20,000 nt of DNA, from the IMG/VR virus record IMGVR_UViG_3300009376_001605; one strand, written 5' to 3'. A model generated the notes under the pieces. That model was not told the DNA's origin, did no database searches, and was given only the letters and a program-made list of their open reading frames with translations. Origin of the DNA: an uncultured virus (IMG/VR IMGVR_UViG_3300009376_001605) (Duplodnaviria > Heunggongvirae > Uroviricota > Caudoviricetes). The position numbers and the translations under genes were made by a program. Numbering within the stretch: position 1 is the stretch's first letter; each line of letters opens with the position of its first letter. Below are positions 1,639-18,755 of the stretch, piece after piece.

Positions 1639-1651
1639 AGCAGACTGTACA

Positions 1652-1686: not shown

Positions 1687-1692
1687 ATTAAA

Positions 1693-3006: not shown

Positions 3007-3033
3007 AATGTCTCCGTCTCTCGAGTTAAATTT

Positions 3034-3276
3034 ATGAGTATTTTTTTAAAGCAAACATGTTTTGATGCGCACTCTGATAAAAACATGCCATGTCGCAAAA
3101 AAGAGTGTAAAAATTGGATCGACTGCAAAAAAGACTTTAATTGTGTTTTGATAAGTGCCAAAGAAGGTCCTAAGACATTGCAGGAAATTGGGGAAGTGTT
3201 TGACTTGACACGAATGAGAATCTGCCAAATAGAGAAAAGTATTCTGGGCAAGCTTAAGTCTTCCCTTCCTGATTAA
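3034..3276 (+). CDS. Small protein: Cys/His-rich N-terminus + sigma-70 region 4 HTH
   Basis: KTLQEIGEVFDLTRMRICQIEKSILGKL matches the sigma-70 r4.2 pattern TLEEVG..F.VTRERIRQIE.KAL.KL. Five Cys in the first 37 aa. Confidence 0.8.
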   Translation: MSIFLKQTCFDAHSDKNMPCRKKECKNWIDCKKDFNCVLISAKEGPKTLQEIGEVFDLTRMRICQIEKSILGKLKSSLPD

Positions 3277-3308
3277 GTATCTTTCTTTCTATTTATTTTG
3301 ATAAACAA

Positions 3309-3630
3309 TGGTGGAGCCGGCGGGAATCGAACCCGCGTCCGCAACCATCAATTGTAGGGATTCATTTACAAGTTTAGCTGGTTTTTGGCTCCAGCAAGCT
3401 CATCTCAAAAAAATGCTTACTTTTAAAAGGAGTAAGTCGAACCTTATCTCAAGCAACTTTCTGTTTATTGGCTGTTGCCGCCTCACACATCTACTGGTTT
3501 TTAAGCAGCGATTGCGTATATATCAAAATCGTCGTTTGCGATTATTATTTTGTGCCTTTTTACCTGGCCGGGCACCTCCAGGACTTGCATCACCTTCAAC
3601 ATCCGACCACGTCGATACCGTGTCGGCCCC
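3309..3630 (-). ncRNA. ssrA: tmRNA (322 nt), tag peptide (A)ANDDFDIYAIAA
   Basis: 5' GGGGCCG pairs with 3' CGGCTCC-ACCA (G3.U alanine identity, encoded CCA). T-arm GCGGGTTCGATTCCCGC. PK1 formed by CCTGG/CCAGG plus GTGCC/GGCAC. Resume context ATAATC-GCA. Tag ORF 3539..3501 ends AIAA-TAA. Confidence 0.97.
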
Positions 3631-3644
3631 ATCAAAGTTTAAAT

Positions 3645-3827
3645 TTAGTCTTTGCCTTCTTCTAGCGAAGTCTTGACTAAGTCTGCTGCTGCGTTCTTCA
3701 AGAGACGCAATCCTTTTCGTGCACGAGTTCCTGCACTTTTGTTTCCTCGGGCATTCTTGTGAATATCCAGCTCCAAGCTCTCTATCAGAACTTTCAATTC
3801 TTCCCACTTATCTATGACTTTGCTCAT
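3645..3827 (-). CDS. Histone H1-like (Hc1-family) nucleoid protein
   Basis: 60 aa containing GNKSAGTRARKGL, the GNKAAGTRARK signature of Hc1-like proteins. SD AGGAAG/AGGA upstream. Confidence 0.8.
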   Translation of the reverse strand: MSKVIDKWEELKVLIESLELDIHKNARGNKSAGTRARKGLRLLKNAAADLVKTSLEEGKD

Positions 3828-3848
3828 TTCCTACTTCCTTTCGCGTAG

Positions 3849-4559
3849 CTATTGATCTAATGAAACAGAACGATCATATTCATTACGTATGGCATCGTTT
3901 AACTTTCCAATGTACCCGGTGTTTCGCAGAGTTTTAAAAATTAAATTTTCCTCAGCAAATTCGCCTTTTCTCTCAAGACCTGCTTTTCTCATTTTCATAA
4001 TCTTGTCTTTGGCAATATCCAGGGCTTTTCTTTTTTCTTCTAATTCTACTACATGGTCTATTCTATCCATAATATCTTGTGATTTTTTAAGGACATACTC
4101 CTCGTCGATCTCAGGATTGGTTCTCTGGGGGACGACAAGCCACTTGTTTCTTAAAACAGAGAAAACCCCTGTAGAATGGTGGGGCTCCTTAGAATCTTGT
4201 GCGTAGAGTTCAACGTCGTGATCCTTAATCTTTATATCATGTGCATCATTCCATAATCGACGCTTAGCATTGAAAAGATCTTGAATGAGTTCTCCGGTTT
4301 CCCCCATTGAAGAGAAATCAAAAAGTATGTGGAGATCCAGATCGCTTTGGTCTGTATAATTGTAGTTTGCCATAGATCCTGTGAGCGTGATATCAGTAAA
4401 TGTCATCTTAGGATCAATCGACTCAAGAAAGTCATACGCGATTCTAAGAAGCGCTTTTCTTATCTCAGGTTTGAGTTCTACTTTGAATTCACCGCACGAA
4501 GGATCATCGCAGACCGTGTCCCAGATATTCCTGTTAAGCAATCTATTCACTCTTGTCAT
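3849..4559 (-). CDS. Pol-beta superfamily nucleotidyltransferase
   Basis: LTGSMANYNY...SDLDLHI (hG[GS]-x-DxD motif), third acidic residue in DVELY, helical C-terminal domain. Confidence 0.8.
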   Translation of the reverse strand: MTRVNRLLNRNIWDTVCDDPSCGEFKVELKPEIRKALLRIAYDFLESIDPKMTFTDITLTGSMANYNYTDQSDLDLHILFDFSSMGETGELIQDLFNAKRRLWNDAHDIKIKDHDVELYAQDSKEPHHSTGVFSVLRNKWLVVPQRTNPEIDEEYVLKKSQDIMDRIDHVVELEEKRKALDIAKDKIMKMRKAGLERKGEFAEENLIFKTLRNTGYIGKLNDAIRNEYDRSVSLDQ

Positions 4560-4602
4560 TTGAGAGCCCTCATCGAAGAGTAAATATTGAAATGTATGTA
4601 TT

Positions 4603-4857
4603 TTAGCTATCTAGAATAATCTTTGAGGTAGATTTAACACCCTCGACTGTTTCACCTTGGGACATCTTATAGATGCCTCTATATCCTGTTAGAAGCTCTC
4701 TATTCTCAAGCTCAAGAGCCAGGAGGCCAATTATCTGATTTATCTGGGATTGACTTACGCCATGCCTAAGAATTTCTAGGACTATCTCTCGAGACATAGA
4801 CATTTCTTTTACCCATTTATCAGTATCATTTTCACCGTATTTCTTTATTTCACTCAT
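4603..4857 (-). CDS. Hypothetical protein (84 aa)
   Basis: ATG at 4857 with AGGAG SD at good spacing; overlaps the stop of the upstream gene. Confidence 0.7.
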   Translation of the reverse strand: MSEIKKYGENDTDKWVKEMSMSREIVLEILRHGVSQSQINQIIGLLALELENRELLTGYRGIYKMSQGETVEGVKSTSKIILDS

Positions 4858-5326
4858 CACTATCTCCTAAAAAGCTTTGACTTGATGACGAAGATATCCT
4901 ATACTGGTCTTCATCTACAAATACCAGAAACTTTGCAAAAGTATCATCCTCATTTTCCTCGTAGGAAACTCTTACTTTTTCTCCCCACCTTTTTTCATCT
5001 AATATAAACTGTGCATGCTCCCATGCAGGAAGATCACAGCTATAGGATTCTAGAATTTCAACTAGGCGAGGTGGTAATCCGAACTTAATGTCTTTAATTT
5101 CAATGATAGACTTTGTTTCATCTTTTCCTGACGCAATCTCACTTTTGCAAACATCTACAACTTTGTGAATGACGCCGCAGTTTGGACACTGTGCCAGCTT
5201 TTCAACTACCTTATCGTTTTCAAGAATAGAAAAAACTGTAAACTTATGAAAAACAGGGTCTGGCTTGCCTCTGTACTGGGGCAGAATACAGTGGCATTGA
5301 ATTAAATGCTTCTCAGCACTTTTCAT
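4850..5326 (-). CDS. Hypothetical protein, probable Zn-binding (CHC...CPNCG..H...C)
   Basis: 158-aa ORF tightly packed in the operon; Cys/His motif visible in the translation. Confidence 0.75.
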   Translation of the reverse strand: MKSAEKHLIQCHCILPQYRGKPDPVFHKFTVFSILENDKVVEKLAQCPNCGVIHKVVDVCKSEIASGKDETKSIIEIKDIKFGLPPRLVEILESYSCDLPAWEHAQFILDEKRWGEKVRVSYEENEDDTFAKFLVFVDEDQYRISSSSSQSFLGDSDE

Positions 5327-5330
5327 TAAA

Positions 5331-5552
5331 CTACTTGCTATGGCGTCTAAGAGCGTTAATTAGCAAGTCAGATTTCTCAATGAAAGCCTGATCTACTGAA
5401 TCATTAGCAAGCTTACAAATTCCAGGAAGCTTTTCCTTGTCGATAGTCAGCATATTATTGTTGATTGCTGTATTGAAATTTCTTTCAATCTGTGCTTTTA
5501 CCTCTTCGATAATTGCTTTTACGCTGTAAGTTACATCATTTTGCAAACTCAT
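5331..5552 (-). CDS. Hypothetical helical protein (73 aa)
   Basis: GGAGAG SD; fills the gap between the chaperonin-like gene and the Zn-protein gene. Confidence 0.7.
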   Translation of the reverse strand: MSLQNDVTYSVKAIIEEVKAQIERNFNTAINNNMLTIDKEKLPGICKLANDSVDQAFIEKSDLLINALRRHSK

Positions 5553-5563
5553 TTTTTCTCTCC

Positions 5564-6889
5564 TTAGTCATCTAAAACGATCGCAGTGTCGATAGAAGAT
5601 AACTGCTTAAATAATTCATATCCATATTTGCATCCAATGTAAATTGAAGATGCTATCTGTCGTCCGCTACCTGGTATAATGCTTGATTCCGGAATATCGA
5701 TTATCCCAAATCTAGTAATCGCATTGGCACATCTAAGTGCAGTATCAATTTTCTCAATTTGACTAAATTTTTCCTGTGACGTTTTTTCAGGCAGATTTAT
5801 TTTAACCTGGTTGGATGTAAGCGAGGTTATTCTTCTTTTAAGGTAGTCATCTTTTAAATCACTCTCACCGAGCTGCTCTCTTATCTTTTCTGCCCTTGTG
5901 TTAGCAGAATTCTTGGATATAGAGCTTTTGATGCTTATCTTATTCTCAGTTATTACGACCTCTTCATTTGTGCTATCTAGGTGCTCGGGAGAAAATGAAG
6001 TAGATATTGTACCTGTCTGGAATCCGTAGAAGCATGATCCTGATGCGGCTGACATGTCGAAAATATCATTTATGGCTTCTTCTTCTTGGCTGGGCTTACA
6101 AAGCATTACATTAAATGTTCCGCGGGCGTTGTTCGCTATAATAGTTGAGACAACTTCAGGAGAGTATCCGAGACAGATAATGACTGCATTACCTTTTCTT
6201 TCTGCTAATGAAGAAAGTATTACATCTATTTCGGAAACTTTTTCTATAAAGCCTTCTATGCACAAGACAGAAACATCTTTTTTTGCCCACATGAAGTCTG
6301 ACTGTAAAAGAAGGTTAGGGTCTGGTTCTATTTCAAAGATATAGCTGGCATTAGATTCTATAATGGGATTAGGAATATTGCTATGCTCAAAAGATAACTT
6401 TCCTGACATTCCTGATAATTTTAGAGACTCCAAAACAAGAGAAGATGTTGTTTTGTCAAAATTTATTTTTAGGTAATCCTCTAAGGTTCTCAAAGTTGGC
6501 CTAGACATTTTTTCCTGAATGGCATCAAATATGTCATCTACATCTTTTCTTATAGATTTTTCTTTATCTTTGATACCCATGCTGCTTAGATTATCAGATT
6601 TCCTGGTTAGGTCTATAAGCATTTTAATCATAGTAGAAGATGACATTGCAGATGTTTTTTCACATTTTAAGACGTGATTAATCACGATCTGCTTGAAAAT
6701 ATTTTCAGTTCTGTTTGCAGGTGAATAAGAAAGCAAAGAAAGAAGAATGCTTCCAGAAGTTCTTGGGGAATTAGACATTAAAAATGCAACCTTTGAGTTG
6801 CGCTCTTGAATACGAGTAAGAGCTTCAAGGTTTTTTAAGAACTGTCTTGATTCCTTCTTTAGATTTTTTCTCTCTACTCGGGATCTCAT
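5564..6889 (-). CDS. Divergent GroEL/Cpn60-like chaperonin (441 aa)
   Basis: Apical-domain match: VLCIEGFIEKVSEI...AVIICLGYSPEVVSTIIANNARG.FNVMLCK vs GroEL ILL.DKKISNIRE...[30 protein letters not shown]. Also YLKRRITSL...EKIDTAL...GII vs KLQERVAKL...RVEDAL...GVV. No GDGTTT motif. Confidence 0.72.
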   Translation of the reverse strand: MRSRVERKNLKKESRQFLKNLEALTRIQERNSKVAFLMSNSPRTSGSILLSLLSYSPANRTENIFKQIVINHVLKCEKTSAMSSSTMIKMLIDLTRKSDNLSSMGIKDKEKSIRKDVDDIFDAIQEKMSRPTLRTLEDYLKINFDKTTSSLVLESLKLSGMSGKLSFEHSNIPNPIIESNASYIFEIEPDPNLLLQSDFMWAKKDVSVLCIEGFIEKVSEIDVILSSLAERKGNAVIICLGYSPEVVSTIIANNARGTFNVMLCKPSQEEEAINDIFDMSAASGSCFYGFQTGTISTSFSPEHLDSTNEEVVITENKISIKSSISKNSANTRAEKIREQLGESDLKDDYLKRRITSLTSNQVKINLPEKTSQEKFSQIEKIDTALRCANAITRFGIIDIPESSIIPGSGRQIASSIYIGCKYGYELFKQLSSIDTAIVLDD

Positions 6890-6903
6890 TTTTCCACGCG
6901 GGT

Positions 6904-8835
6904 TTAACCATCTCTCCAGAGATTATTGGCCGCAAATTTAATTACTTCTTCTGCAGAATCTTCATTGTAGCCGTAGTCTTCGATAAGCGTAGACACCATA
7001 TCACCGTATTTCTTTTGCTGTTTATTATCGCGGGATTTTGACTTTGTAACAATTCTGGACATATCTTTTACAGATGACATCAGTTTATTCTCAATGGCTT
7101 CCTTGAGAGGGCCATAAGCTTTCCAGTCAATCTTCTTTTTAGCGCGAAGAAGAGTAAACATGTAAGTAGTAACATCAGATCTAAATCCGTCTCTAGCAGA
7201 GCCTGTAATGCCAATATTTTCCTCGATGGATTTCATGAAGTTTTCATCTGGCTCCATCTCTTCACGTGTCACCTTATCTTTTACTCTTGACTTATTAACA
7301 TAAGCCTCGGCATGATCAAGGTAGTTATCAAAAAGGGCCTCTGCTTGTTCTTCGTAAGCACTTACAAAAGCCTTGGTAATCTCCTTCTCCAAGATCCTTA
7401 AGTATTCTTCATGAAGATCTTTTTGAAGGTATTGGAGATAGCGCTCTCTAGCTTCCTCATCGATAATCTGTTCTTTGACTTGCTTGATAAGGGAATCTCT
7501 AACTGAAATTGGGGTAACCATATTTCTATCAGAATCAGAAAGCGCTGAATCGATCGCTTTGGTGATGAAGCGTGTTGAGATACCGGTCATACCTTCATCG
7601 CGGGATTCCTCACGAAGATCTTTGATGTCGACCTTCTTGACTCTTCCCTTTTCGATGATGTCCTCCCCGTTATAAATCTTCATCTTAACCAAAGGATCAA
7701 CTTTACCAGAAGGTTTTAATCGAGACATAACTGCAAACATCGATGCAACCTCAAGTGTGTGTGGTGCAATGTGGGCATCGAAATCAGACATCTTCAACAT
7801 CTTCTGGTAAATCTTTACCTCCTCGTCAAGTTCTAGGCAGTACGGGACATTAACCTTGACGATTCGATCAAGTATAGCTTCATTTGTGTGTGTGGATTTA
7901 AATCGGTTCCATTCCGCTTCGTTGCAGTGTGCAAGGATGACACCGTCAAAGTAAATCATGGCACCTTTACCAGGAGAGGGAACTGCCTTCTCCTGTGTTG
8001 CCGTGATCATTGTGTGTAGAAATTCAATCTCATTCTTAAAGACCTCTACGAACTCAACGATACCTCTGTTACCAACATTAAAGGCCCCGTTCAAGGAAAG
8101 CACTCTGGGATCATCCTCGGGATACAGATCCAACTTCGAGATGTCCTCTGAGCCTATAAGAATTGAAGTATCTTGAGTGTTGGCATCGACAGGGGGTACA
8201 ACACCTACACCTCTTCTACCTCTAATTGAGAAAGAGGATTGTTTTACAGGAAAATTCTCATATTTCCCACCAAACTCTTCTAAAAGTCGGTGTCGACATA
8301 CAGGGCAAAGATCGCCTTCTATTTTAATGCCGAGCATTTCCTCAAACTTGCTGCGGAGAGAGCGAGGTACGAGATGTAGAGGTTCTTCTCTGATTGGGCA
8401 GCCATCTAAATGATAGATATGCTCTGCTCTTTCTAGGCCTCTTTTAATGTGTTCGATCAGGGCAGATTTTCCGGCGCCGACCGGGCCTAGGAGTAGAAGT
8501 ACTTGTCGACTTTCCTCACCCTTCATAGCAGCAGAACTGAGGAATCTCATCACTTTTGCTAGAGATCTTTCCATGCCGAAGAAATGCGGTTGGAAATAGT
8601 TGTAAGTCTTTGTCTTTTCACTATCAAATAGGCGGCGGCATCTCTCATCTGTTTCATCTAGTACTTCAATACCGTCTTCTGCAAGAACATCAAAAAGTCT
8701 TCTATGAGCCAAGGCTGCAATCTTTGGATTTTTCTCAACAACTTCCAGATATTCTAGAAAAGTACCCTTAAAGGATACATCCTTCTTTTCAGATCTCTGC
8801 TGGCTAATTAAATCAGCAAATTTAGATTTAGTCAT
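6904..8835 (-). CDS. prkA: PrkA/YeaG family AAA+ ATPase (serine kinase/protease)
   Basis: LLLLGPVGAGKS Walker A, CPIREEPL, GNRGIVEFVEVFKN, NEAILDRI..VNVPYCL, EGMTGISTRF. Typical length of 643 aa. Confidence 0.95.
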   Translation of the reverse strand: MTKSKFADLISQQRSEKKDVSFKGTFLEYLEVVEKNPKIAALAHRRLFDVLAEDGIEVLDETDERCRRLFDSEKTKTYNYFQPHFFGMERSLAKVMRFLSSAAMKGEESRQVLLLLGPVGAGKSALIEHIKRGLERAEHIYHLDGCPIREEPLHLVPRSLRSKFEEMLGIKIEGDLCPVCRHRLLEEFGGKYENFPVKQSSFSIRGRRGVGVVPPVDANTQDTSILIGSEDISKLDLYPEDDPRVLSLNGAFNVGNRGIVEFVEVFKNEIEFLHTMITATQEKAVPSPGKGAMIYFDGVILAHCNEAEWNRFKSTHTNEAILDRIVKVNVPYCLELDEEVKIYQKMLKMSDFDAHIAPHTLEVASMFAVMSRLKPSGKVDPLVKMKIYNGEDIIEKGRVKKVDIKDLREESRDEGMTGISTRFITKAIDSALSDSDRNMVTPISVRDSLIKQVKEQIIDEEARERYLQYLQKDLHEEYLRILEKEITKAFVSAYEEQAEALFDNYLDHAEAYVNKSRVKDKVTREEMEPDENFMKSIEENIGITGSARDGFRSDVTTYMFTLLRAKKKIDWKAYGPLKEAIENKLMSSVKDMSRIVTKSKSRDNKQQKKYGDMVSTLIEDYGYNEDSAEEVIKFAANNLWRDG

Positions 8836-8843
8836 TCTTGATG

Positions 8844-8880
8844 CTCCACACTTTCAATAATACACACTAATATGTAGGAG
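8844..8880 (-). promoter_or_regulatory. SD-sequestering inverted repeat upstream of prkA with TATTAT in the loop
   Basis: CTCC(T)ACA...TGTGGAG arms, 22-nt spacer. Confidence 0.45.
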
Positions 8881-8881
8881 T

Positions 8882-10189
8882 TTAAATCTCGAAAGGCTCA
8901 TCTTCGATAACAGTAAAGAATTTAAAGTCATCGCCCCACAGGTCTAAAAGATGATCACATACATTGTGTGCGTAATCTAGATCTAGATCCCTACCATCAT
9001 GCTCGTGTTCTAAAACCAGCGTTTGATCCTTTTGAAGCTCCTTGACATAAATATTTGGCAAAGAGTTAAGGCCTACATTTTTTATGAGATCGGATCTAAT
9101 CTGTTTCCAGCCATCTTGATCCGATATATCGTCTATCGTCCATTCTTTTTTCTTTTTAGAGTAAGAGAAAAGATTAAGTTCTTCACATATTTCTTTGTTG
9201 AGATATGACCTGATAAAAGATTCGTCATTATGAGAAGACCTTGCTATAAAACATTCCTCTAGCCCTTTATTTTTCTCAATCCATTTAAAAATTGTGAATC
9301 CTAGATGATAGGGATTAATTCTTCCTACCATTGGCCGGAGAACCTGATTATGAAATTTAAGAAAAGACAAGTGAAACTCTTGCGGGAGATCAAGCTCTGA
9401 CATTATTTTATAGTGCCAAAATGATGCCCATCCTTCATTCATTATTTTTGTCATTGCCTGCGGCATAAAGTACATTGATTCTTGACGAACAATATCAATA
9501 ATATCTCTTTCCCAGTCCTCTAAATTTCTAGAATGTTTTCCTATAAATCCAAGAATATCATAGTCAGGCTCTAATGGGATCTTATTGATATCAAAATCTT
9601 CTGGGAGTTTCTCAGGTTTAAAGTTAGCAATATCAACATAGGCTTGCTTTATTTCTTGATGAGATTTTCGACTAATTCCAAACTCGCGATAGTTATGATA
9701 CTTTAAAGCATGACATGCATCTATTACTTTTTCAACAGCTTCAACACCGATGTGAGGATTGTCAGAATATTTCTTGATCCTCTTTGCAGAATTACGAAAC
9801 CTTGATATCACATTAGCTGCATCGGTATGCTTAAACATCCGATTATTTTTGAAGAAGTCGGAGTGACCAACGCAGTGTGCCATGATAAGAACTTGCAAAG
9901 GAAGAGGGTTCTCAGTCATCAAATACGATATCGAGGGATCGCTATTGATGATCATCTCGTAGGGTAATCCCTCCATGCCGAGGTTATACATGGTGTGTGT
10001 TCGTTCAAAGGACTTGCCGTACGACCAATGCTGGTAGTGAGTGGGCATTCCAATGTATGACATGTAACCGATCATATCATGATAGTCGCAAACTTCGTAG
10101 TCAATTGGATACCAGTCAAGGTTATATTTCTTGGCTAGCTTAACAATTTTTTCGTCCCATGCATGGAGTTCTTCAAATGTCCATCCCAT
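8882..10189 (-). CDS. spoVR: SpoVR/YcgB family protein
   Basis: GMPTHYQHWSYGKSF, LPYEMIINSDP, AHCVGHSDFFKNN, TKIMNEGWASFWH, NPYHLGF, HDGRDLD. Confidence 0.95.
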   Translation of the reverse strand: MGWTFEELHAWDEKIVKLAKKYNLDWYPIDYEVCDYHDMIGYMSYIGMPTHYQHWSYGKSFERTHTMYNLGMEGLPYEMIINSDPSISYLMTENPLPLQVLIMAHCVGHSDFFKNNRMFKHTDAANVISRFRNSAKRIKKYSDNPHIGVEAVEKVIDACHALKYHNYREFGISRKSHQEIKQAYVDIANFKPEKLPEDFDINKIPLEPDYDILGFIGKHSRNLEDWERDIIDIVRQESMYFMPQAMTKIMNEGWASFWHYKIMSELDLPQEFHLSFLKFHNQVLRPMVGRINPYHLGFTIFKWIEKNKGLEECFIARSSHNDESFIRSYLNKEICEELNLFSYSKKKKEWTIDDISDQDGWKQIRSDLIKNVGLNSLPNIYVKELQKDQTLVLEHEHDGRDLDLDYAHNVCDHLLDLWGDDFKFFTVIEDEPFEI

Positions 10190-11358
10190 TATTCTGATCT
10201 CCCACCAAAAAGCTTCTTAAATGAAGGCCAGATATCTTTAGCATTAACCATCTTTAAAGTCTTAAAAGCTTTGTCTACAAGTGGTTGATAAATTTCCCAC
10301 ATTCTAGAATTATTATTCTGGCGCCACTGTGATGACTCACCGTTAGGATCTATTTCACAAAAAGCGTAAAGCTGTGATATTGACTTAAGTTTCTTAGAAG
10401 CATTGAAAGCTTTTTCCTCATCTTCTGACCAGTTATCCCCATCTGAACAATGAAAAGAGTATATATTCCAATTGCTGGGGTGATATCTTTTCTCAACGAC
10501 CTCGAGTGTAAGATCAAGTGCAGGTGAGATAAATGTTCCACCGGATGGTGCTAGACTGAAGAAATCATTCTCACTGACTTCTTTTGCCGTGGTTGTATGA
10601 GCAATAAATACAACTTCAACATTATCATATTTGTGTCGCAAAAACTGGTAGAGAAGAAAGAAGAAGCTCCGGGCAATGTACTTCTTTTCAGTACTCATTG
10701 AACCTGAGATATCCATAATGAAAAATATTGCTGCAGATGAGATCTCTGTTTCTTTTACTTTGAAATGCTTGTATCGAAGATCATCTTCATGAAAAGGAAA
10801 TCTTTCATCTTCTTCTTCGTTAAAGGTCCCAGCTTTTTGAGACATTTTCTTTCGACGAATCTTCTGTTTAAGAGTCTCTTTCTTAGAGAGGCGCGGCCTA
10901 ATACCTTTAGGCCGAACACCTTTTCTTCTAAAAGTGTCGGACGACAGAAACTTAAATTTCTTCTTATCTAGATCAGGAAGCTCAAGATCACTAAAGAGGT
11001 ATTCTGCAAGCTCCTCTAATGTAATCTCTACGTCGTAGAACTCCTCACCTGGTTTATCCCCAGGCTTGTTACCTGATTTCTTGCCTTCCTTATCCTCAGC
11101 AATCTTTTGACCTCTGTGAATATCTTTGCCCGGTGCGGAACCAACCTTTTTAGAGTTGTCACCGTAGATAAATTGGTATTCTTTTATGCCCTTTACAGGA
11201 ATCCGAACTTTTTTCTTACCATCTTGGCCAATAATGGACTCTTCGGCAACGATATTTCGAATACCTTCTTTTAAAGCTTTTTCAATTTTTTGCTTATGGC
11301 GCGATCGATCGGTGGCTGATCGATCTGCTATAGATTTGTGTTTTCTAAAAGTACTCAT
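10189..11358 (-). CDS. yhbH: YeaH/YhbH (DUF444) VWA-like protein
   Basis: DRSRH, PFHEDDLRY, MDISGSM (MIDAS DxSxS), FIAHTT.AKEV.E..FF...SGGT.IS, HCSDGDNW. Coupled to spoVR by a TAATG overlap. Confidence 0.93.
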   Translation of the reverse strand: MSTFRKHKSIADRSATDRSRHKQKIEKALKEGIRNIVAEESIIGQDGKKKVRIPVKGIKEYQFIYGDNSKKVGSAPGKDIHRGQKIAEDKEGKKSGNKPGDKPGEEFYDVEITLEELAEYLFSDLELPDLDKKKFKFLSSDTFRRKGVRPKGIRPRLSKKETLKQKIRRKKMSQKAGTFNEEEDERFPFHEDDLRYKHFKVKETEISSAAIFFIMDISGSMSTEKKYIARSFFFLLYQFLRHKYDNVEVVFIAHTTTAKEVSENDFFSLAPSGGTFISPALDLTLEVVEKRYHPSNWNIYSFHCSDGDNWSEDEEKAFNASKKLKSISQLYAFCEIDPNGESSQWRQNNNSRMWEIYQPLVDKAFKTLKMVNAKDIWPSFKKLFGGRSE

Positions 11359-11364
11359 GGTCGC

Positions 11365-11820
11365 TTAAGGTAATAATACCCCAAAAAGCGCTTGAATTAT
11401 AAGGATGGCGAGTGTCGAACCGAAAAGCCATTGCAATTTACTAAGATTGGACTGCCATATTTTGAGCCTATCTAGCTCTAAGTTATGAAGATCAATAGTT
11501 TTTACCTTGTCTTCAACATCTCTTTTCCATGAGAGGAGATCGTCAAATTCATCCATCTTATGCTGGGCTTCTTGGACAAATAGCCAACGCCTCTGAGATT
11601 CTGCCTCTAAGTCTCTTACACGGGATCGAACCCCACTCTCCGGATCATTAATGGTGTTATTCATAGCTTCTAAGGATTCTTTGACTTCGCCGAGCTGATC
11701 ATTAGTATGCTGAACGTCTTGAACCAGTTTTTCAAAGCCACCATTAAGAACGTGTGAAGAACTAAGCAGGGACTCGATCTGAGACAACTTATTCAGTATA
11801 GCTGTGGGTAGCTCTGGCAT
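11365..11820 (-). CDS. Coiled-coil protein with C-terminal transmembrane anchor
   Basis: Heptad-like helix, hydrophobic tail WLFGSTLAILIIQALFGVLLP, strong GAGGAG SD. Confidence 0.75.
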   Translation of the reverse strand: MPELPTAILNKLSQIESLLSSSHVLNGGFEKLVQDVQHTNDQLGEVKESLEAMNNTINDPESGVRSRVRDLEAESQRRWLFVQEAQHKMDEFDDLLSWKRDVEDKVKTIDLHNLELDRLKIWQSNLSKLQWLFGSTLAILIIQALFGVLLP

Positions 11821-11830
11821 TTTATTCTCC

Positions 11831-11866
11831 TCACAAATGTAAATATAAGCCGCTGGTGCTTTGTGA
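11831..11866 (-). promoter_or_regulatory. Inverted repeat abutting the SD with ATATTTA in the loop
   Basis: TCACAAA...TTTGTGA(GGAG), 22-nt spacer. Confidence 0.5.
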
Positions 11867-11894
11867 TGCTTAAACCAGGTGACAGACTAGGTTT

Positions 11895-11922
11895 AAAAAC
11901 TTCTTACAGGAAAAGAGAAGTT
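11895..11922 (-). terminator. Possible weak intrinsic terminator after the 80-aa gene
   Basis: AACTTCT...AGAAGTT stem followed by a T-run on the minus strand. The stem is AT-rich, so it would be weak. Confidence 0.3.
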
Positions 11923-11933
11923 ATAATTTTTAG

Positions 11934-12176
11934 CTAAAAAAATCTTAGTAAAATATCGATAAAAAGTAGAACAGGTACGCACCAGACTAGAAGAGAAGTA
12001 TTTTTCTTTAGGGACTTTTGATTCTCACGCAGAAATTCAATCTCTCTATTTATCTTATCGATATCTTTTCCCATGACGGGCATATCATCGTTAGTTAAGA
12101 CCTCATTGATCTTAAGTTTAATGTAGGCAAGTTCTTTTGCCATAGTTTGGGGATTGAATCTTCTACGTTCAGTCAT
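11934..12176 (-). CDS. Small coiled-coil protein with C-terminal transmembrane anchor
   Basis: IDKINREIEFLRENQKSL followed by LLVWCVPVLLFIDILL. GGAGAAGG SD; overlaps the upstream stop. Confidence 0.7.
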   Translation of the reverse strand: MTERRRFNPQTMAKELAYIKLKINEVLTNDDMPVMGKDIDKINREIEFLRENQKSLKKNTSLLVWCVPVLLFIDILLRFF

Positions 12177-12465
12177 TACCTTCTCCGCATTCCTTGCAAA
12201 CTAAAGACATTGCACCCTCTGATATCGTGAGATTCCAATCATCTAGATGGTCATCGCTTGAAGGATCAAATTGCTTACTACAAGATGTGCAAGATTTAGG
12301 CATGTTAGAGATAAAATTCTCTACTTTTTCTAATTGTCTAGACATCTCTTTTTGAAAGATCTTCTCAGATTCTTTCTTCTTATTAATTCTCTGATATCTC
12401 TGTTTATCTTTTCTCTTTTTCTTAAGAGCTTTAGATTGTTTTTTGTGAGATGGTATCTTGCTCAA
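12169..12465 (-). CDS. Basic Zn-ribbon protein (CTSC...CKEC)
   Basis: Lys-rich N-terminus and two CxxC motifs. TTG start after AGAGAG. Confidence 0.7.
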   Translation of the reverse strand: MSKIPSHKKQSKALKKKRKDKQRYQRINKKKESEKIFQKEMSRQLEKVENFISNMPKSCTSCSKQFDPSSDDHLDDWNLTISEGAMSLVCKECGEGND

Positions 12466-12471
12466 GGCTCA

Positions 12472-12508
12472 TTCTCTCTTATTTTATAATTACAGAGAAA
12501 AGAGAGAA
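12472..12508 (-). promoter_or_regulatory. 9-bp inverted repeat covering the SD, with TAATTATAAAAT in the loop
   Basis: TTCTCTCTT...AAGAGAGAA, 19-nt spacer. Confidence 0.55.
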
Positions 12509-12520
12509 CGTATAATTTTT

Positions 12521-12880
12521 TTATCTAAATCCAGGGCCAAATATGCCCTTAGAGAATCCTGGTCCATCAACTGCAGTAGGTTTCTTTTGCTCCATGTAAG
12601 CATCGTCACCCATCAGTCTTTCACCTCGAGGAATTTCACCAGAAGTTGCAGGATTAGGGATATCTTGACGCATACCCGCTTCTTTCTCATGAGCCCTGGG
12701 TTCAACATGCTGCAGCATTCTTTGAAGAAGAGCTCTGGCCTTGATTGGGCAATCACCAGCAGCGACCATTACTGCAGACATTAAATCTTCATGACCTTGA
12801 TCATGTGTGTCATGTTGGCGGTGCATATCGCACATCTCTTGGAGGATAATCTTCCTCAGTTGTGTCGCATTGATCTTCAT
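12521..12880 (-). CDS. Hypothetical protein with MKINATQLRKIILQE leader (putative virion protein)
   Basis: TAATG coupling to the upstream gene; shared N-terminal motif. Confidence 0.7.
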   Translation of the reverse strand: MKINATQLRKIILQEMCDMHRQHDTHDQGHEDLMSAVMVAAGDCPIKARALLQRMLQHVEPRAHEKEAGMRQDIPNPATSGEIPRGERLMGDDAYMEQKKPTAVDGPGFSKGIFGPGFR

Positions 12881-15141
12881 TACTTCTTCTCCGTAATATT
12901 AACTCTCACCCGCGGCGAGGAGCTTTTAACTTTAATACTTATAGGTTTTCCAGTGTTAAAGATTTCAAAAAGGGAATCATCAATCCCAGATAGATCTCCT
13001 AAAGAGCTATCCTGTGTGCCCGGATCGCTTGGTGTTCCCTGTGTTGGTGTTTTAGCTTTAGGATCAATCTTAGGCCTAGGTTTCTGACCCCTCTTTGCCT
13101 TTTCTTTTCCTACACCGAAATCCACCCCTAGCCCTCGAACCTTTTCGAGAGCATCATCAGAAGTTTGCTGGATTTTATCAAGAGCGCTTCCTGCTTCCCG
13201 ATGTTCATCATTAGCTATCTTTCGATCTTCAGGAGAAAGATCAGCAATATTTTCAACATCACCATAATAATTCTCTACCAAATCCCAGACACTATCAGGA
13301 ATTAATGGAATACCAACATTTTGGTGAAAGGAATATATTTCCGCTGGAGAAGCCCCGGACTTATCCTCAACAATCTTTAAATAATTTTTATGAGTTTCTT
13401 TGACAGCATATCGAAGTTGCTGTAGAGACATATCCACATTCCATTTTGGCATGACCTCATTATGTTTTTTATAAAAATCCGTTAGGCTATGGAGGTACTC
13501 AATTAGAAGTTTTCGAGCATCAGCACCCTCCGGAGGATTCATGACAAATTCATAGTTTTTTCTCTCTTCCTCGAGGCTGTCTGACAAGATGTACGTTATA
13601 ATCCAGAAAGTCATCATCGCGTAGTAGCTACCCTGTATCACTAGAAATAGCTTTGCAGCACTTCTTGATGCACCTAACCCATAAGATCTGGACACTTTTC
13701 CTGATGATCGTAGGATCGAGGTCAACCCAGCCGCGAACATCTTTGTCCCACCAAACCCGCCAAAGAAATCAACACCGGCCATAGCTTTCTTCCAGGCAGG
13801 TAGATCACTGAACTTGATTGCATCATCTGCCCAGGGTACCATCCATAATTTAAACTCTTGATTAAAAATATTCTTATACCCTTCCCAGGCCTCCTCCCTC
13901 CATTTAAGAAGAATATCAAATTTACGCCACCTGTCGTCTCCGGCCGCTTCCCATCGTTCTTGAAATCTTTTCCACGCTTGATAAAAAGTTCTGTTAGCAT
14001 TATTAAGGTTTTCCATAGCCTGTACCATCTCCCCGAGCTCGTCAGCTAGCTTGAGCACGTTCAGCTCTCCTCCTCCTGAGAGCCTGGACTGTCCCGACTT
14101 AGTGTATCTAATATCTGCTACTCTACCAGTTGCATAAACGGTTTCACCCTCTCCCAAGACAATGATCGCCGTTTGCCCATCTTGATTAATGACTACCCTT
14201 CCGGCCTCATCTACTAGAGGAAGATATAATTCTTCACCAGGCTTAATCTTGCCAGCATCTTCGGCTGCTTGAACTATCTTGTTTTCCATCTTGTTGAAGA
14301 TCTTCTTGGTCTGATCTGCGTTTAGAACCACCACATTGCCATCTTGTATTCTTTTAACAATTGTTTGAATTGCTTCCAAATAAGGAATCAAAACCTCGGC
14401 GGCCGCCGGGTCCGATGCAATTGTCGTTCTGATACTAAGCACCTTCTTTTCATAGAACTCTCTCGCAGACGCATTATCGATGTTATTCTCCTCCAACCAC
14501 TTTAGATCCTCGGGGTGTAGGGAAGAGGTCTGGTCGGCAGCATCAGCACCTCTTCGGGTTGCCGCCCGGGTACCCGAACTTGCTTTTCCTCCGCTTTCTT
14601 TCCACGACTTCATTGAACGACGTCGTCCTGTTGCACCGATACCTGCAGATCCCTCAATAACTCCGTCTTTGTCGATTGCCATGTAAATTTTAATGGGGGT
14701 AGGGCCGCTAGGAATAGGCTTTCCAGAAGCATCAATTAGGCCTTCCGGGAAATCTACGCTTCCGTCAAAAGAGATCCGTGCAGCTCCTGTAGAAGTTCTT
14801 CCATCCCCGAGAGGGACAGCTTCTCCTCTTCTTAGTTGATCCACAACAGATGCAATAACTTCATTCATTTGTTTTTCAAGCTGTGGGTTAGAATCAAAAA
14901 TATTTCTAAAAATGACTTTACTGTCAAGTCCTGCCGCGGCCAATTTTCTAGGTAGTTCAAGATTATCGAGTACTCTTCTTGATCTACTAACCACGTCTGC
15001 AAAGTCGTCAAGTCTTACTAATTTACCAGCCGTAGAGAGGTGCTTCCAAAAGCTGCCTAATTGCCTTAGTACCTCGTTAAGTGGGTCTTTGCTTGTTTCT
15101 AGTTCTTCATTCAGCGAGCTAAGATTTAGTTTTATTTTCAT
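12880..15141 (-). CDS. Large hypothetical protein (753 aa) with internal TM segment; putative virion-internal protein
   Basis: Long ORF abutting its neighbours; leader MKIKLNLSSLNEE; hydrophobic segment LFLVIQGSYYAMMTFWIITYIL. Confidence 0.75.
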   Translation of the reverse strand: MKIKLNLSSLNEELETSKDPLNEVLRQLGSFWKHLSTAGKLVRLDDFADVVSRSRRVLDNLELPRKLAAAGLDSKVIFRNIFDSNPQLEKQMNEVIASVVDQLRRGEAVPLGDGRTSTGAARISFDGSVDFPEGLIDASGKPIPSGPTPIKIYMAIDKDGVIEGSAGIGATGRRRSMKSWKESGGKASSGTRAATRRGADAADQTSSLHPEDLKWLEENNIDNASAREFYEKKVLSIRTTIASDPAAAEVLIPYLEAIQTIVKRIQDGNVVVLNADQTKKIFNKMENKIVQAAEDAGKIKPGEELYLPLVDEAGRVVINQDGQTAIIVLGEGETVYATGRVADIRYTKSGQSRLSGGGELNVLKLADELGEMVQAMENLNNANRTFYQAWKRFQERWEAAGDDRWRKFDILLKWREEAWEGYKNIFNQEFKLWMVPWADDAIKFSDLPAWKKAMAGVDFFGGFGGTKMFAAGLTSILRSSGKVSRSYGLGASRSAAKLFLVIQGSYYAMMTFWIITYILSDSLEEERKNYEFVMNPPEGADARKLLIEYLHSLTDFYKKHNEVMPKWNVDMSLQQLRYAVKETHKNYLKIVEDKSGASPAEIYSFHQNVGIPLIPDSVWDLVENYYGDVENIADLSPEDRKIANDEHREAGSALDKIQQTSDDALEKVRGLGVDFGVGKEKAKRGQKPRPKIDPKAKTPTQGTPSDPGTQDSSLGDLSGIDDSLFEIFNTGKPISIKVKSSSPRVRVNITEKK

Positions 15142-16881
15142 TTATGTATCTCCGTCCCCGGTGTCCCTGAAGTCATCTAATTCAGCAGGGGTCAATGTTC
15201 GCAATGCATTTCGGCGTTCAGAATCTCTCTTTGATGACTTTCGGCGTTCACCAGGTTTATATCTTTCCATGCCCTCGTCTTTGAGAGCTTTAATAACTAT
15301 CTGTGCAGACCTTGTCTCACCTTCACCTTTTAGCCAGTCAATCAAGTCGCCATCATCGGCTTCACCCTTTCTGGCAAGGTAAGTATTAAACTCTGCATAG
15401 AGCTCAGGAATATCACTTTTTCGACGATCTAGCACTCCATCGATGGCATCTTCATCTGTGCCCCAAGCTTCAAGCCATCCAGGTATAAGCTGTATATCTT
15501 CTCCTGCCATTGCTGTGTAAAGCGTGGCAGCATCATCGGATGTTTCTCCCGGAATCGTTCCCGGCGAGTATCTTTCTTTTTTATTATCTCTAAGGGCTTT
15601 TCGAACCATCCCGGCAACGTTTTGTAGTTTTCCTTCACCACCAAACTGAGTACCGCCCCAAAGACCCTTAGTCTCATCCTCTATCCAGTCGATAAGATCG
15701 TGATAGTATATAGTATCCCCGCGGCGCTCAGGAACCCGAGGTCCTTCTCTCTTCTCTACGGCCTTGCTGAACTCGTCATAGAGCTTGTGCAAGTCGTTTT
15801 TTCCACCTAGCTTTCCAGAACGTCTTTTTATGATATCTGCTACAATAGCTTCTCCGGAAGAACCTTCAACTCCCCAAGCTCCCTTTGAGGTAAAGCCATC
15901 CATCTCATCGTAGAGAATAGTAGCATCTGATTCTTTCTCGTAAGAACCGGTACCCGACGCTGCGAATAAACTAGGTGATTCAATATAAGCGAAAGGCTGG
16001 AGAATGTCATCTCCAATCAGGTTCGCAACTTGCCTTCTTAGATCTTTGCGAGTTTTTACTTCCGGAAGAAGAAAAAGAGGATATAGTGCTAATCCGAAAT
16101 CTTGAAATTCATCAGAATCCCAAGATTGCAATAAAGACTCAGCCTCCTCAACGGCAATCATATCGGAAGCGGTCAGTAAAATCTCGAACAGCCAAACAGC
16201 TGCAGCCGGCATCGCCTTAGCAGTCGTACCACCACTAAGGACAAAGGCGCCGGCCATGACTATAAACCACAAAGTTAAGACGATTCCTATCTTTACTTTC
16301 ATCACGGTCGACTTCCAGCTGAGCTCACCTTTATACGAATCAAATCCCTTTTGAGACTCACTTTTAAAGTCATTAAACCATGCCTTTGATGTGAGAGCAT
16401 TTAAGTAAAGTTTTTTGACCGCAGTCTCTACTCCTGTACCTGATATAAGGCGCTTAGCTTCTGCTTTTAAAAAGTCAGGATCTGTCTCGCTGTTAAGAGA
16501 TCTAAGTCTGTCATTTACAGATTTAGACGTATGTCTGCTAAGGGCTCTGGCTCTTTCATCTTTATCGGCAGATGATTTTACTGCTCCTGACGGCTTCTTT
16601 TTTGACATCCTTTTAAATAAAGTCTGGTAAGCTTTAGATGAAGAATCAAAGCTTTTCCCGACAGCCTTCTCCAGGCGATCAACTTTTTTATCACTTAGTC
16701 TTTCACGCTTGCTATTAAGGCCGATAACTGTAAAATTATCTTTCTCCGGGCTATACTCGTAGTCAAAGGGATCACCCTTCATAACATCCTGGAAATCTCC
16801 GCGGTCTGCAGAAAGTATGATATCGTTTTTTTCCTCAACCTGCTCGAGGAGGGTATTAAGAGAGGAGAGAGAAACCTTCAT
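15142..16881 (-). CDS. 579-aa protein with hydrophobic hairpin and two annexin-like repeats; putative virion-internal protein
   Basis: TM IGIVLTLWFIVMAGAFVL plus AAAVWLFEILL. Repeats DATILYDEMDG...DLIDWIEDE and DAATLYTAMAG...WGTDEDAIDGVL...DLIDWLKGE resemble the annexin consensus. Confidence 0.75.
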   Translation of the reverse strand: MKVSLSSLNTLLEQVEEKNDIILSADRGDFQDVMKGDPFDYEYSPEKDNFTVIGLNSKRERLSDKKVDRLEKAVGKSFDSSSKAYQTLFKRMSKKKPSGAVKSSADKDERARALSRHTSKSVNDRLRSLNSETDPDFLKAEAKRLISGTGVETAVKKLYLNALTSKAWFNDFKSESQKGFDSYKGELSWKSTVMKVKIGIVLTLWFIVMAGAFVLSGGTTAKAMPAAAVWLFEILLTASDMIAVEEAESLLQSWDSDEFQDFGLALYPLFLLPEVKTRKDLRRQVANLIGDDILQPFAYIESPSLFAASGTGSYEKESDATILYDEMDGFTSKGAWGVEGSSGEAIVADIIKRRSGKLGGKNDLHKLYDEFSKAVEKREGPRVPERRGDTIYYHDLIDWIEDETKGLWGGTQFGGEGKLQNVAGMVRKALRDNKKERYSPGTIPGETSDDAATLYTAMAGEDIQLIPGWLEAWGTDEDAIDGVLDRRKSDIPELYAEFNTYLARKGEADDGDLIDWLKGEGETRSAQIVIKALKDEGMERYKPGERRKSSKRDSERRNALRTLTPAELDDFRDTGDGDT

Positions 16882-16883
16882 GC

Positions 16884-17867
16884 TTATTTTTTCCCGTTGA
16901 TCTCATAATCCAAGTAGTGATATACAGAACCGAGATAGTCCGAGGCTTTAGTAATCTTGGACTCAACCCACTCAGGAAGGTCATCGGATTCACGAATCAT
17001 GTGTTCGAGTTTCTGGGAGTATTTAGCAGAACGTCGTAACTGAGATCGAGCCATTGATCCTTCGTCATCGCTATGATCTAGATCGCGAACTTCTTCATCT
17101 TCTTTGGCCGCGGCCGCAAGATCCATTACAACGTGGTCTGATGGGACGTGAGACATACTCATATCTGGTGCACCACATCCACAATGTGCTTCTGAAATGC
17201 CACCGTTAGAAAAGCCAAGCCCGCCTGCAAAACGTGCTTCATTGATATCAACTTCACCTGCAGAATCTCTACCGCCCGTAGCATACCCAGCATATGTAGC
17301 TGCATTCTGAATGCCGGCAATAAGCTCATCAAAGTCATAACCTATCTCAACCTCACCGCGTTCTTGCCCTGGGTACCACCGTTGGATTTTGTGCATAACA
17401 GTAGTTAGATCCTCGTCTTTACCTATTTTTGGATGTCCCATTACGGCAGCTAAGATTTTATGTGTTTCATGGCGCTGATCGTCAGTTCCTGATTTCGTAG
17501 TTCCTGCTGTTTTAAAGACATCCGCCCATGCCTGGACTATTTTAGCATTTTTTGGCTGCTTGGCCCACCCATCTAGATCATCTTCTGCGGTAACACCTTG
17601 ATCCTGTTCCAATAAGGCACGAAGGCTGTATCGGCGCTCTTTAACGATCGGTGTCAAGTCTTGGACGCGCGCCTGCGGTTTTTCAACATCTGCGGGGACA
17701 TCTTCCGGGACATGCTCAAAATCATCTGAGAGTATTCCATTAACATTTGGATCTTCAACAGGTTCCACATCCGAAGGATGTTTCGAGTTGGCGACGTTTT
17801 TTCGATCTTTGAAAGCTTTGAGTTCTTCTTCAATAATAGCTCGGAGGCCTACTTCATTTATCTTCAT
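16884..17867 (-). CDS. Hypothetical acidic protein (327 aa) with MKINEVGLRAIIEEE leader; putative head protein
   Basis: First gene of the coupled cluster; several (I/L)xE sites; helical C-terminus LPEWVESKITKASDYLGSVYHYLDYE. Confidence 0.75.
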   Translation of the reverse strand: MKINEVGLRAIIEEELKAFKDRKNVANSKHPSDVEPVEDPNVNGILSDDFEHVPEDVPADVEKPQARVQDLTPIVKERRYSLRALLEQDQGVTAEDDLDGWAKQPKNAKIVQAWADVFKTAGTTKSGTDDQRHETHKILAAVMGHPKIGKDEDLTTVMHKIQRWYPGQERGEVEIGYDFDELIAGIQNAATYAGYATGGRDSAGEVDINEARFAGGLGFSNGGISEAHCGCGAPDMSMSHVPSDHVVMDLAAAAKEDEEVRDLDHSDDEGSMARSQLRRSAKYSQKLEHMIRESDDLPEWVESKITKASDYLGSVYHYLDYEINGKK

Positions 17868-18158
17868 TTTAAATCCCTTGGGCGACGCGCACTTGAAAAG
17901 TGCAGGTTTTCATATTTTAAATATGCAAAAAGGCTGCTATTATTATACAATCTTTAGATGAGAGAGGAAACCAGTCAGATCTCAAAGATTTTGTCAAATC
18001 TTATGCCGATCTCGCCCGGTAACTTTTAAAGACATTTTTTTATAGGGGCTTCGTATACACCCAAATCATCCCATTAAATCAAACCCGAACCAATCTCAAC
18101 CCTCTCAGACCCCCTCTCAGGCTAAAACAACGGTCCACCCTCACAGTAAGATATAGTC

Positions 18159-18755
18159 ATGGCAAAAAAGAAACGCAGAGTCATCACAGAGGGCGCGAGG
18201 CGCATGGGTCGCGGGAGCGAACGGGTGTACGCTTACACATTCTCCTCGTATCAACGCGCAGCCGGTCCCTATCCGATCAAGGTGGGCATGACGCGCGCAG
18301 GCAGTGCGGAGCGTAGGATAGCGCAGCAGCTCGGGGCGTCTAACGCGGAAACCCCCATCCTCCTATTGGAGATCTCATGCGAACACGCCTCCCTATTAGA
18401 GCGCTCCTTGCATAGCAGACTGAAGAGTAGGCATATAACGGATGTTCCCGGCAAAGAGTGGTTTCGTACGACTCCCGCGGAGATCACTCGACACTTGCGC
18501 GCGTTAGACCCTTCTCACGTAGAATCATTCGGTCAAGGGATGATGGTTTTAGTGGATTGGGTCTGGCGCTGCATATGCGCAGCAACCTCGGGACTCTGGC
18601 AGCTGTTCTCATGGATGTTTAGAATCACGACGAAGAAGAGCAGAAGGCGATGGAAGCGCCGTACTAAGCGAGCCTTAAGGCGCACTGAGGAGAGGGTAGT
18701 GAATACACTGGTGTTCGGGCTGTGTCTCGCGTGTCTAGCGGTGTGTGCTACTTAG
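18159..18755 (+). CDS. T5orf172/MUG113-type GIY-YIG domain protein with hydrophobic C-terminal segments
   Basis: VYAY...IKVGMT...ERRI.Q...LERSLH..L...GKEWF pattern; GC-richer codon usage. Confidence 0.75.
   Translation: MAKKKRRVITEGARRMGRGSERVYAYTFSSYQRAAGPYPIKVGMTRAGSAERRIAQQLGASNAETPILLLEISCEHASLLERSLHSRLKSRHITDVPGKEWFRTTPAEITRHLRALDPSHVESFGQGMMVLVDWVWRCICAATSGLWQLFSWMFRITTKKSRRRWKRRTKRALRRTEERVVNTLVFGLCLACLAVCAT

Follow-up and report, generated by a model that had tools for sequence, protein, structure and literature searches.

Annexins are textbook eukaryotic proteins that bind Ca2+ and membranes. The locus described here raises the question of whether a bacteriophage carries repeats of the same descent, and what such repeats might do at the membrane of its host. 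It lies in a stretch of 20,000 nucleotides (nt), termed the window below, which corresponds to the minus strand of G000:C1:17717-37716. G000 is a 235,681-bp (~236 kb) IMG/VR virus record (IMGVR_UViG_3300009376_001605; CheckV completeness 70%) of an uncultured marine T4-like giant phage, a far-T4 myovirus. An open reading frame (ORF) of 579 amino acids (aa) in the window ends in two related repeats, and its orthologues show 98, 90, 58 and 65% identity. Repeat 2 is very probably homologous to the annexin repeat, and repeat 1 derives from repeat 2 as a degenerate copy.

Comparison of the two repeats by BLASTP (a single comparison) revealed 29% identity with an E-value of 0.003, and 26 columns are invariant between both repeats in three orthologues, including D-A..L-Y, R-R-K, L-Y.E, D-L-I-D-W and K-A-L. 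A repeat-2-type hidden Markov model (HMM) of 57 proteins matched repeat 1 with an independent E-value (i-E) of 6.4e-9 upon a search of the 1015 ORFs of the genome, none of the other ORFs falling below E 0.1. Together, the self-match, the invariant columns and the HMM match indicate that the duplication is real and beyond chance. The original prediction, made from the letters of the window, had placed the two copies at 15927..15592 and 15534..15283; the sequences read as quoted there and the duplication was confirmed. Each repeat is followed by R-Y-(S/K)-P-G (window 15562-15576 and 15247-15261, minus strand), and many single-repeat relatives end in a similar R-x-x-P-(P/G) tail, with R in 29 and P in 18 of 57 sequences at those columns.

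The relationship to annexins was found by comparison with the sequences of all solved structures. The nine best matches of window repeat 2 alone are annexins (E 6.4e-4 to 0.012), and repeat 2 of the orthologue P0003 matched annexin VI with an E-value of 1.1e-15, the best 60 of its 84 matches all being annexins or annexin A2 fusion constructs. A profile search with the C-terminal region against 1.84 billion representative proteins yielded 55 proteins at E<=0.001; two of these were already in the query alignment, leaving 53 other relatives. Pfam Annexin (PF00191) matches 33 of the 53 at E<=0.01, and eight reach its curated gathering cut-off of 25 bits. The family profile of 57 sequences retrieved annexin VI at E 7.6e-40, with single-repeat i-E values down to 1.7e-6, and again the best 60 of 80 matches are all annexins or annexin A2 fusion constructs. 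By these searches repeat 2 falls within the annexin repeat superfamily. Repeat 1 is linked to it by transitivity through the repeat-2 family profile only, and counts as an annexin repeat solely because of its likeness to repeat 2.

The predicted fold agrees with this assignment. A first AlphaFold model, covering both repeats and built from four sequences, was poor, with a predicted local distance difference test (pLDDT) score of 58.6, and Foldseek placed annexin IV first for it (E 0.016, template modelling (TM) score 0.25). The second model, of repeat 2 from 57 sequences, reached a pLDDT of 78.5 and a predicted TM score of 0.68 and shows five helices A-E in the annexin arrangement; its pLDDT drops below 50 at model residues 27-31, inside a loop insertion. 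Foldseek again ranked annexins first for this model, with a probability of 0.99, TM scores by query of 0.53-0.59 and root-mean-square deviations of 2.5-3.2 Å. VIA-align, which is independent of Foldseek, returned annexin-fold chains at all of the top eight places among 48,161 representative chains. The viral structure library BFVD gave no match at E<=0.001, its sole lead being A0A6J5RF64 (probability 0.69). For repeat 2 the five-helix annexin fold is hence borne out in a predicted model, with annexin-fold chains at the top of two comparisons. The claim of two annexin repeats accordingly stands for repeat 2, in sequence and predicted fold, and is qualified for repeat 1, which gave no direct annexin signal.

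Several results count against the annexin reading. Pfam Annexin failed to match the window protein at E<=1 or its repeat pieces at E<=10, so that this check of the prediction came out negative and the orthologues alone reach the model (P0003 with E 1.8e-4 and 22 bits, below the cut-off; P0008 with 26.5 bits). Against the solved structures, repeat 1 alone found no annexin, and a profile of repeat 1 only placed annexin A8 first at E 0.18, with nothing significant. HMMER limits the annexin alignment to the first 40-45 residues of the repeat, and the Pfam Annexin matches of the relatives always cover profile positions 1 to ~45 of 66. The Foldseek E-values are not significant (at best 0.29 for repeat 2, and the 0.016 of the two-repeat model), for repeat 2 with a query so short. 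The silence of Pfam on the window protein, the half-length HMMER alignment and the Foldseek E-values above 0.01 would all suit a likeness that arose by convergence or chance, its source being a helical protein with a short G-T-D-E motif. We consider such an origin highly improbable, as it is opposed by the profile E-value of 7.6e-40 with its 60 best annexin or annexin A2 fusion chains, by the eight relatives above the curated Pfam cut-off and by the eight annexin-fold chains leading the VIA-align ranking. In addition, the D-L..D.L..(D/E).G half of the repeat can be aligned by eye with annexin helix D and its cap residue.

Judged by sequence, the family to which the repeats belong comprises at least 55 metagenomic protein clusters, uncharacterised within the searches made. 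Most relatives are short and have one repeat, and most begin with the same kind of N-terminal leader as the 579-aa protein (24 of 53 by a strict pattern). A pattern scan of 185,579 species genomes yielded one weak locus, the scan being narrow and no proof of absence, and scans of viral contigs gave 1 and 4 loci only. One locus, L023, was judged spurious, as it has the GDLIDWL motif only, in a 627-aa protein on a high-GC contig. The viral contig L020 has a cluster of four adjacent leader-type genes, one of which ends in an annexin-type repeat, as does a neighbouring 565-aa ORF with a similar N-terminus. In the single-repeat relatives P0027, P0035, P0060 and P0033, the repeat is interrupted between helix C and the D-L-I-D-W-L block by a long hydrophobic, transmembrane-like segment. 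The AT-rich viral contig L022 encodes a leader-type N-terminus before an M23-like peptidase sequence (L022:885-1556) and, near this M23 gene, a 408-aa protein (L022:4515-5741) in which a leader and a long hydrophobic region, rich in Gly and Ala, are combined with an annexin-like repeat (DDLYNAMKGLGT...DLLEWLDSD).

Conservation within the family is centred on the Ca2+ loop. The best-kept columns of the 57-sequence alignment are those of the K-G-x-G-T-D-E loop (G 55/57, G 50/57, T 55/57, D 47/57, E 49/57), and the D-L-I-D-W-L-x-D-D-G block is also conserved (D 53/57, L 55/57, W 55/57, acidic residue 56/57, G 56/57). The acidic residue eight positions after the conserved D-L is what we take to be the annexin cap, from an alignment by eye with annexin sequence. 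These conserved loop and cap positions argue for a retained annexin-like ligand site and not a mere scaffold. The canonical loop, acidic cap included, is present in P0003, P0008 and most relatives, and those with K-G-x-G-T-D-E and the cap may still use Ca2+. Such use would be plausible in a periplasm equilibrated with seawater, which has a Ca2+ concentration of ~10 mM.

The loops of the 579-aa protein itself differ from this. Repeat 1 reads M-D-G-[10 aa]-G-S-S-G-E and repeat 2 reads M-A-G-[12 aa]-W-G-T-D-E, with the cap Glu present. The canonical G-x-G-T loop is absent from repeat 1 and split by the insertion in repeat 2, and no type II Ca2+ site, defined as (M/L)-K-G-x-G-T with an acidic cap ~38 residues on, is found in the protein. 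P0001, P0002 and P0004 share the repeat-2 insertion. P0003 and P0008 have neither insertion, and P0008 keeps A-G-L-G-T-K-E in its repeat 1. In an alternative HMMER alignment, the repeat-2 insertion itself aligns with annexin helix A. Because both Ca2+ loops are broken by Trp-containing insertions of 10-12 residues, Ca2+-dependent docking by the 579-aa protein itself appears doubtful. The enlarged A-B loops are rich in Trp and other hydrophobic residues (Phe, Ile, Leu). In annexins the A-B loop face touches membranes, an example being Trp-187 of annexin V. Therefore, binding of the 579-aa protein would depend more on interfacial hydrophobic insertion than on a canonical Ca2+ bridge.

How such a protein might reach a membrane is suggested by its N-terminus. 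The leader pattern M-K-[ILV]-[TSKN]-x3-L-x2-[IL]-[IL]-x-E starts nine of the 1015 ORFs, compared with 0.05 expected from shuffled N-termini. Among 277 chosen ORFs, 14 matched a leader HMM at E<=0.01, and nine of these 14 had served as its seeds; the 579-aa ORF, itself a seed, scored E 2e-7. A leader ORF of 138 aa separates the protease gene from the scaffold-like and capsid genes. In T4, N-terminal propeptides of 10-19 residues load diverse internal proteins into the core and gp21 cuts after Glu, according to PMC9026906 and PMC3012670, the former of which provides the definition used here (10-19 residues, ending (L/I)-x-E). The genome encodes the corresponding head proteins, with Pfam matches to Portal_T4 (1.2e-76), to Peptidase_S77, the gp21-type protease (6.4e-25), and to the Gp23 capsid protein (6.5e-75), and a putative propeptide ending (L/I)-x-E is common to unrelated proteins. 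The leader thus resembles a T4 capsid-targeting propeptide, and the virion-type leader noted originally holds up: it is present, it is common to nine ORFs, and the genome has a T4-type head protease that would act on such a leader.

Two other proteins with such leaders were noted. A polynucleotide-kinase-like protein (L015:9776-10447, G000 162776-163447) matches the leader HMM with E 7e-5 and PHROG 415 with E 4e-7; ATATTTA precedes its gene, and it may be an enzyme cargo. A 177-aa leader protein (L019:5788-6321, G000 226788-227321), lying in a run of three leader genes, has a canonical EF-hand loop, DSDGDGSLDADE, straight after the leader, with Pfam EF-hand matches below the cut-off. It is possibly a second Ca2+-binding cargo of the same genome, judging from this loop.

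Between leader and repeats, the 579-aa protein has an N-domain, a hydrophobic hairpin and a conserved segment. P0005-P0007 have the first ~95 residues in common with it, followed by a hydrophobic region and one degenerate repeat. The two-helix hairpin that had been predicted before the repeats is present by hydropathy, with Kyte-Doolittle means over 19 residues of up to 2.25 in its first segment and 1.74 in its second. Its position is conserved in the orthologues (P0003) and in the longer relatives P0008, P0055 and P0036. It is Gly/Ala-rich, includes acidic residues in the orthologues, and is flanked by a Lys-rich stretch before and an acidic stretch after. Residues 1-310 match no known family in Pfam, PHROGs or the ESM Atlas, the last of which gave scores <=0.78 to unnamed viral clusters. 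PHROGs had no match for the 579-aa protein or its two neighbours, and phmmer with the whole protein against the solved structures found one chance match (E 0.72).

Based on these features, we tentatively propose the following sequence of events. The leader, like a T4 capsid-targeting sequence, would take the protein into the prohead core, where the head protease would remove it after E13 or E16. The mature protein would exit with the DNA at infection, the hydrophobic hairpin would insert into the host inner membrane, and the annexin-type repeats would rest on the bilayer by their enlarged, hydrophobic A-B loop face. Packaging in the virion, ejection, membrane penetration and lipid binding are all inferred. 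The original prediction had envisaged a similar protein acting in a Ca2+-dependent way; the annexin-type repeat 2, the hairpin and the shared leader are retained from it, and the Ca2+-dependent docking as stated and a direct annexin signal in repeat 1 are not.

Further findings weigh against this sequence of events, besides the missing type II Ca2+ site. The first hydrophobic segment, with its mean of 2.25, would normally be inserted co-translationally into the membrane of the producing cell, which is not easily reconciled with loading into a prohead in the cytoplasm. The internal proteins of T4, in contrast to the 579-aa protein, are soluble and of small size. Cultured phages have no detectable homologue, as tblastn with the 579-aa protein and the short relative P0014 found no match in 50,697 phage records. 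The strict leader pattern gave no match in Flavobacterium phage immuto, the cultured relative with the nearest capsid protein, where a 73-aa ORF between portal and protease begins MKKSQIVKAVQEVLEE. In addition, a sigma-70-like TGTATAATA also lies upstream of the operon.

The strong first segment leads to a different picture, in which the protein is an unpackaged integral inner-membrane protein of the infected cell, anchored by the hairpin or by the first segment alone, its repeats facing the periplasm or the cytoplasmic leaflet and its leader serving another shared purpose. Roles in superinfection exclusion, membrane-bound prohead assembly or envelope remodelling before lysis could then be imagined. 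The Lys-rich and acidic flanks of the hairpin and the sigma-70-like extended -10 element would agree with this, as would the bacterial annexins with transmembrane regions described in PMC3894181. The gene also has auxiliary genes (PrkA, DUF444, SpoVR, PhoH) as neighbours and is distant from the structural module, a position that loses weight when T4 is considered, where internal-protein genes also lie away from the head cluster. As the leader is carried by small soluble proteins and by an ORF within the head module as well, and a late-type motif is common to the operon and structural genes, we regard an unpackaged membrane protein as the chief alternative, somewhat less likely than a packaged one.

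The same leader and T4-type head module could also belong to a component inside the head or associated with the scaffold that does not act on membranes, the repeats being generic helical modules that bind DNA, core or shell, and the hairpin being buried. The Gly/Ala-rich hairpin with its acidic residues in orthologues and the disrupted Ca2+ loops of the 579-aa protein are consistent with such a component. It is made quite improbable by the family's conservation, which is highest at the annexin Ca2+-loop and cap positions, and by related contigs in which the repeat accompanies transmembrane segments and an M23 peptidase neighbour.

The timing of expression bears on the proposed packaging. ATATTTA occurs in 26 copies on the coding strand versus 3 on the other, and 18 copies lie <=120 nt upstream of an ORF, including the portal, scaffold-like, sheath and fibre genes. 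ATATTTA-type motifs are enriched at leader ORFs (5/14 vs 20/263; Fisher p 0.005, with the motif set chosen post hoc). The second motif, GTGTAAnT-N13-TATAATA, is found 11-150 nt upstream of at least 12 ORFs, at G000 883-16971, 146010, 168207 and 215281 (L006, L014, L015, L018); these include many genes at 0.8-17 kb as well as a polymerase piece and a helicase. The GTGTAAnT/TATAATA class is probably early or middle, distinct from the ATATTTA class before structural genes. The T4 late promoter TATAAATA was rejected as a candidate, as its 2 and 4 copies in 236 kb indicate that it is not used, and a generic scan of the operon for sigma-70 promoters and terminators remained at chance level. On balance the promoter motifs lean towards co-expression of the operon with the structural genes.

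The 579-aa ORF is the second of four genes in a tight minus-strand block, in the order 327, 579, 753 and 119 aa with spacings of 2, 0 and -1 nt (Table 1). On L004, a metagenome contig with the 58%-identical orthologue, the gene order is kept, with ORFs of 218 aa and 536 aa and then an open-ended ORF of 501 aa running off the contig. The C-terminal motif of the 327-aa neighbour, EGSMA..QL.R....L......LPEWVESKITKA.DYL.SV..Y, belongs to no known family and recurs in L004 and in a 208-aa leader protein of another viral contig (L020:6653-7279). The 753-aa neighbour was considered as a paralogue of the 579-aa protein and rejected (best BLASTP E 0.22). Adjoining the operon on the opposite strand is a T5orf172/MUG113-type gene (198 aa; window 18159-18755, plus strand), whose product has a hydrophobic, very basic C-terminal tail; a T5orf172-type gene is found at the same place beside the block in L004.

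Table 1. Position of the annexin-type ORF, its parts, its block neighbours and upstream motifs in the window
Feature	Position	Strand	Remarks
ORF of 579 aa (stop included)	15142..16881	-	Leader, N-domain, hydrophobic hairpin, conserved linker domain, two annexin-type repeats, charged tail
Leader, residues 1-17	16831..16881	-	MK..L..L..LLE.VEE; candidate T4-type protease sites L11-L12-E13 and V15-E16
N-domain, residues 18-95	16597..16830	-	Common to P0005-P0007, 63-69% identity over 16% of query
Hydrophobic hairpin, residues ~196-244	16150..16296	-	Two segments of ~20 residues, nine-residue joint SGGTTAKAM
Conserved post-hairpin segment, residues 250-300	15982..16134	-	W-D..F..FG.A.YPL.LLPE...LR..V; also in P0036, P0055
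Repeat 1, residues 319-430	15592..15927	-	Degenerate annexin-type repeat; beta-hairpin insert between helices C and D
Insertion of 10 residues, FTSKGAWGVE, in repeat 1 A-B loop	15865..15894	-	From alignments; followed by G-S-S-G-E
Repeat 2, residues 450-545	15247..15534	-	Annexin-type repeat (15534..15283) and R-Y-K-P-G tail
Insertion of 12 residues, EDIQLIPGWLEA, in K-G-x-G-T loop of repeat 2	15466..15501	-	Between the first G and x-G-T
First block gene, upstream, 327 aa	16884..17867	-	Leader MKINEVGLRAIIEEEL
Downstream block gene, 753 aa	12880..15141	-	Leader-like start MKIKLNLSSLNEELE; one hydrophobic segment
Fourth block gene, 119 aa	12521..12880	-	Leader MKINATQLRKIILQEM
ATATTTA promoter-like motif	17918..17924	-	57 nt before the first block gene
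TGTATAATA, sigma-70-like extended -10 element	17941..17949	-	TATAATA-type; at -80

Elsewhere in the window, a PrkA-type AAA/Ser kinase (643 aa), a SpoVR-like protein (435 aa) and a DUF444/YeaH-like protein (389 aa) are encoded next to each other (6904-11358, minus strand) with very strong Pfam matches. The closest phage copies of PrkA, at ~33% identity, are those of Thermus phages and huge uncultured phages. A 437-aa fusion of a PIN_4 domain with a PhoH-like ATPase lies at 1693-3006 (minus strand). The genome also has UvsX-like, gp32-like, sheath and baseplate genes, and two tail-sheath paralogues of ~1040 aa each are adjacent at L013:9960-13091 and L013:13128-16232. Its nearest cultured capsid proteins are those of Flavobacterium phage immuto (45%), Microcystis phage Mel-JY01 and Rhodothermus phage RM378.

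A broader proposal, speculative and as a whole unlikely, is that marine T4-like phages harbour an extensive, undescribed family of annexins with one or two repeats, which a T4-type address peptide would load into the capsid and which would be fired into the host envelope, where seawater Ca2+ in the periplasm would switch on lipid binding or, in the lineage of the 579-aa protein, enlarged Trp-rich loops would replace the Ca2+ bridge. If this is true, phages would be a main reservoir and vehicle of annexin repeats, with a bearing on their patchy spread in bacteria and on the origin of the eukaryotic family. The family of at least 55 clusters would widen the known range of the annexin fold and offer annexin evolution a new, testable source. 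To our knowledge, the way T4-type phages handle the host inner membrane during DNA entry is poorly understood, and the phage family is a candidate for this step. With 115-200 residues, its single-repeat members are of a size suited to direct studies of structure and lipid binding.

A full-text literature search found no paper on phage annexins among the matches listed, which leaves their absence unproven. The survey of bacterial annexins counts about thirty bacterial homologues and none in viruses (PMC3894181), and a 2024 review still keeps prokaryotic annexins as a class 'in abeyance' (PMC10882027). Among known systems, ejection proteins such as T7 gp14-16 and the P22 E proteins resemble the 579-aa protein in their proposed packing in the capsid, expulsion with the DNA and insertion into the host envelope. 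However, they are podovirus proteins with no sequence relation found (no PHROG match), and among the literature matches listed, annexin repeats were reported in none of them. Similar to T4 IPI, IPII, IPIII and Alt, as described in PMC9026906 and PMC3012670, the phage proteins share a short, putative N-terminal propeptide ending (L/I)-x-E on unrelated proteins, together with a gp21-type protease. The T4 internal proteins are small, basic and soluble, unlike the 579-residue hairpin protein; the leader sequence also differs.

Bacterial annexins (Kodavali et al. 2014, PMC3894181) likewise have one to several divergent annexin domains, some with predicted transmembrane regions and extra domains, and a remote but significant similarity to eukaryotic profiles. 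The phage family differs from them in residing in T4-like phage contigs, mostly behind a capsid-targeting-like leader. Compared with eukaryotic annexins, the phage protein has two repeats and not the four (or eight) that form a disc, its A-B loops carry the 10-12-residue insertions and its C-D loop is longer, and HMMER leaves the second half of the repeat (D-L-I-D-W-L.D-D-G) unaligned; moreover, it is phage-encoded, and its repeats are joined to a leader, an N-domain and a hydrophobic hairpin. What it has in common with the eukaryotic core repeats (PF00191; A4, A5, A6, A8, XII and the alpha-giardins) is a unit of ~70 residues with five helices, the signature D-A..L..A.K-G-x-G-T-D-E..I..VL..R and the acidic residue after D-L in helix D, and it is the eukaryotic annexins and alpha-giardins that provide the best matches of the phage repeat in both sequence and fold.

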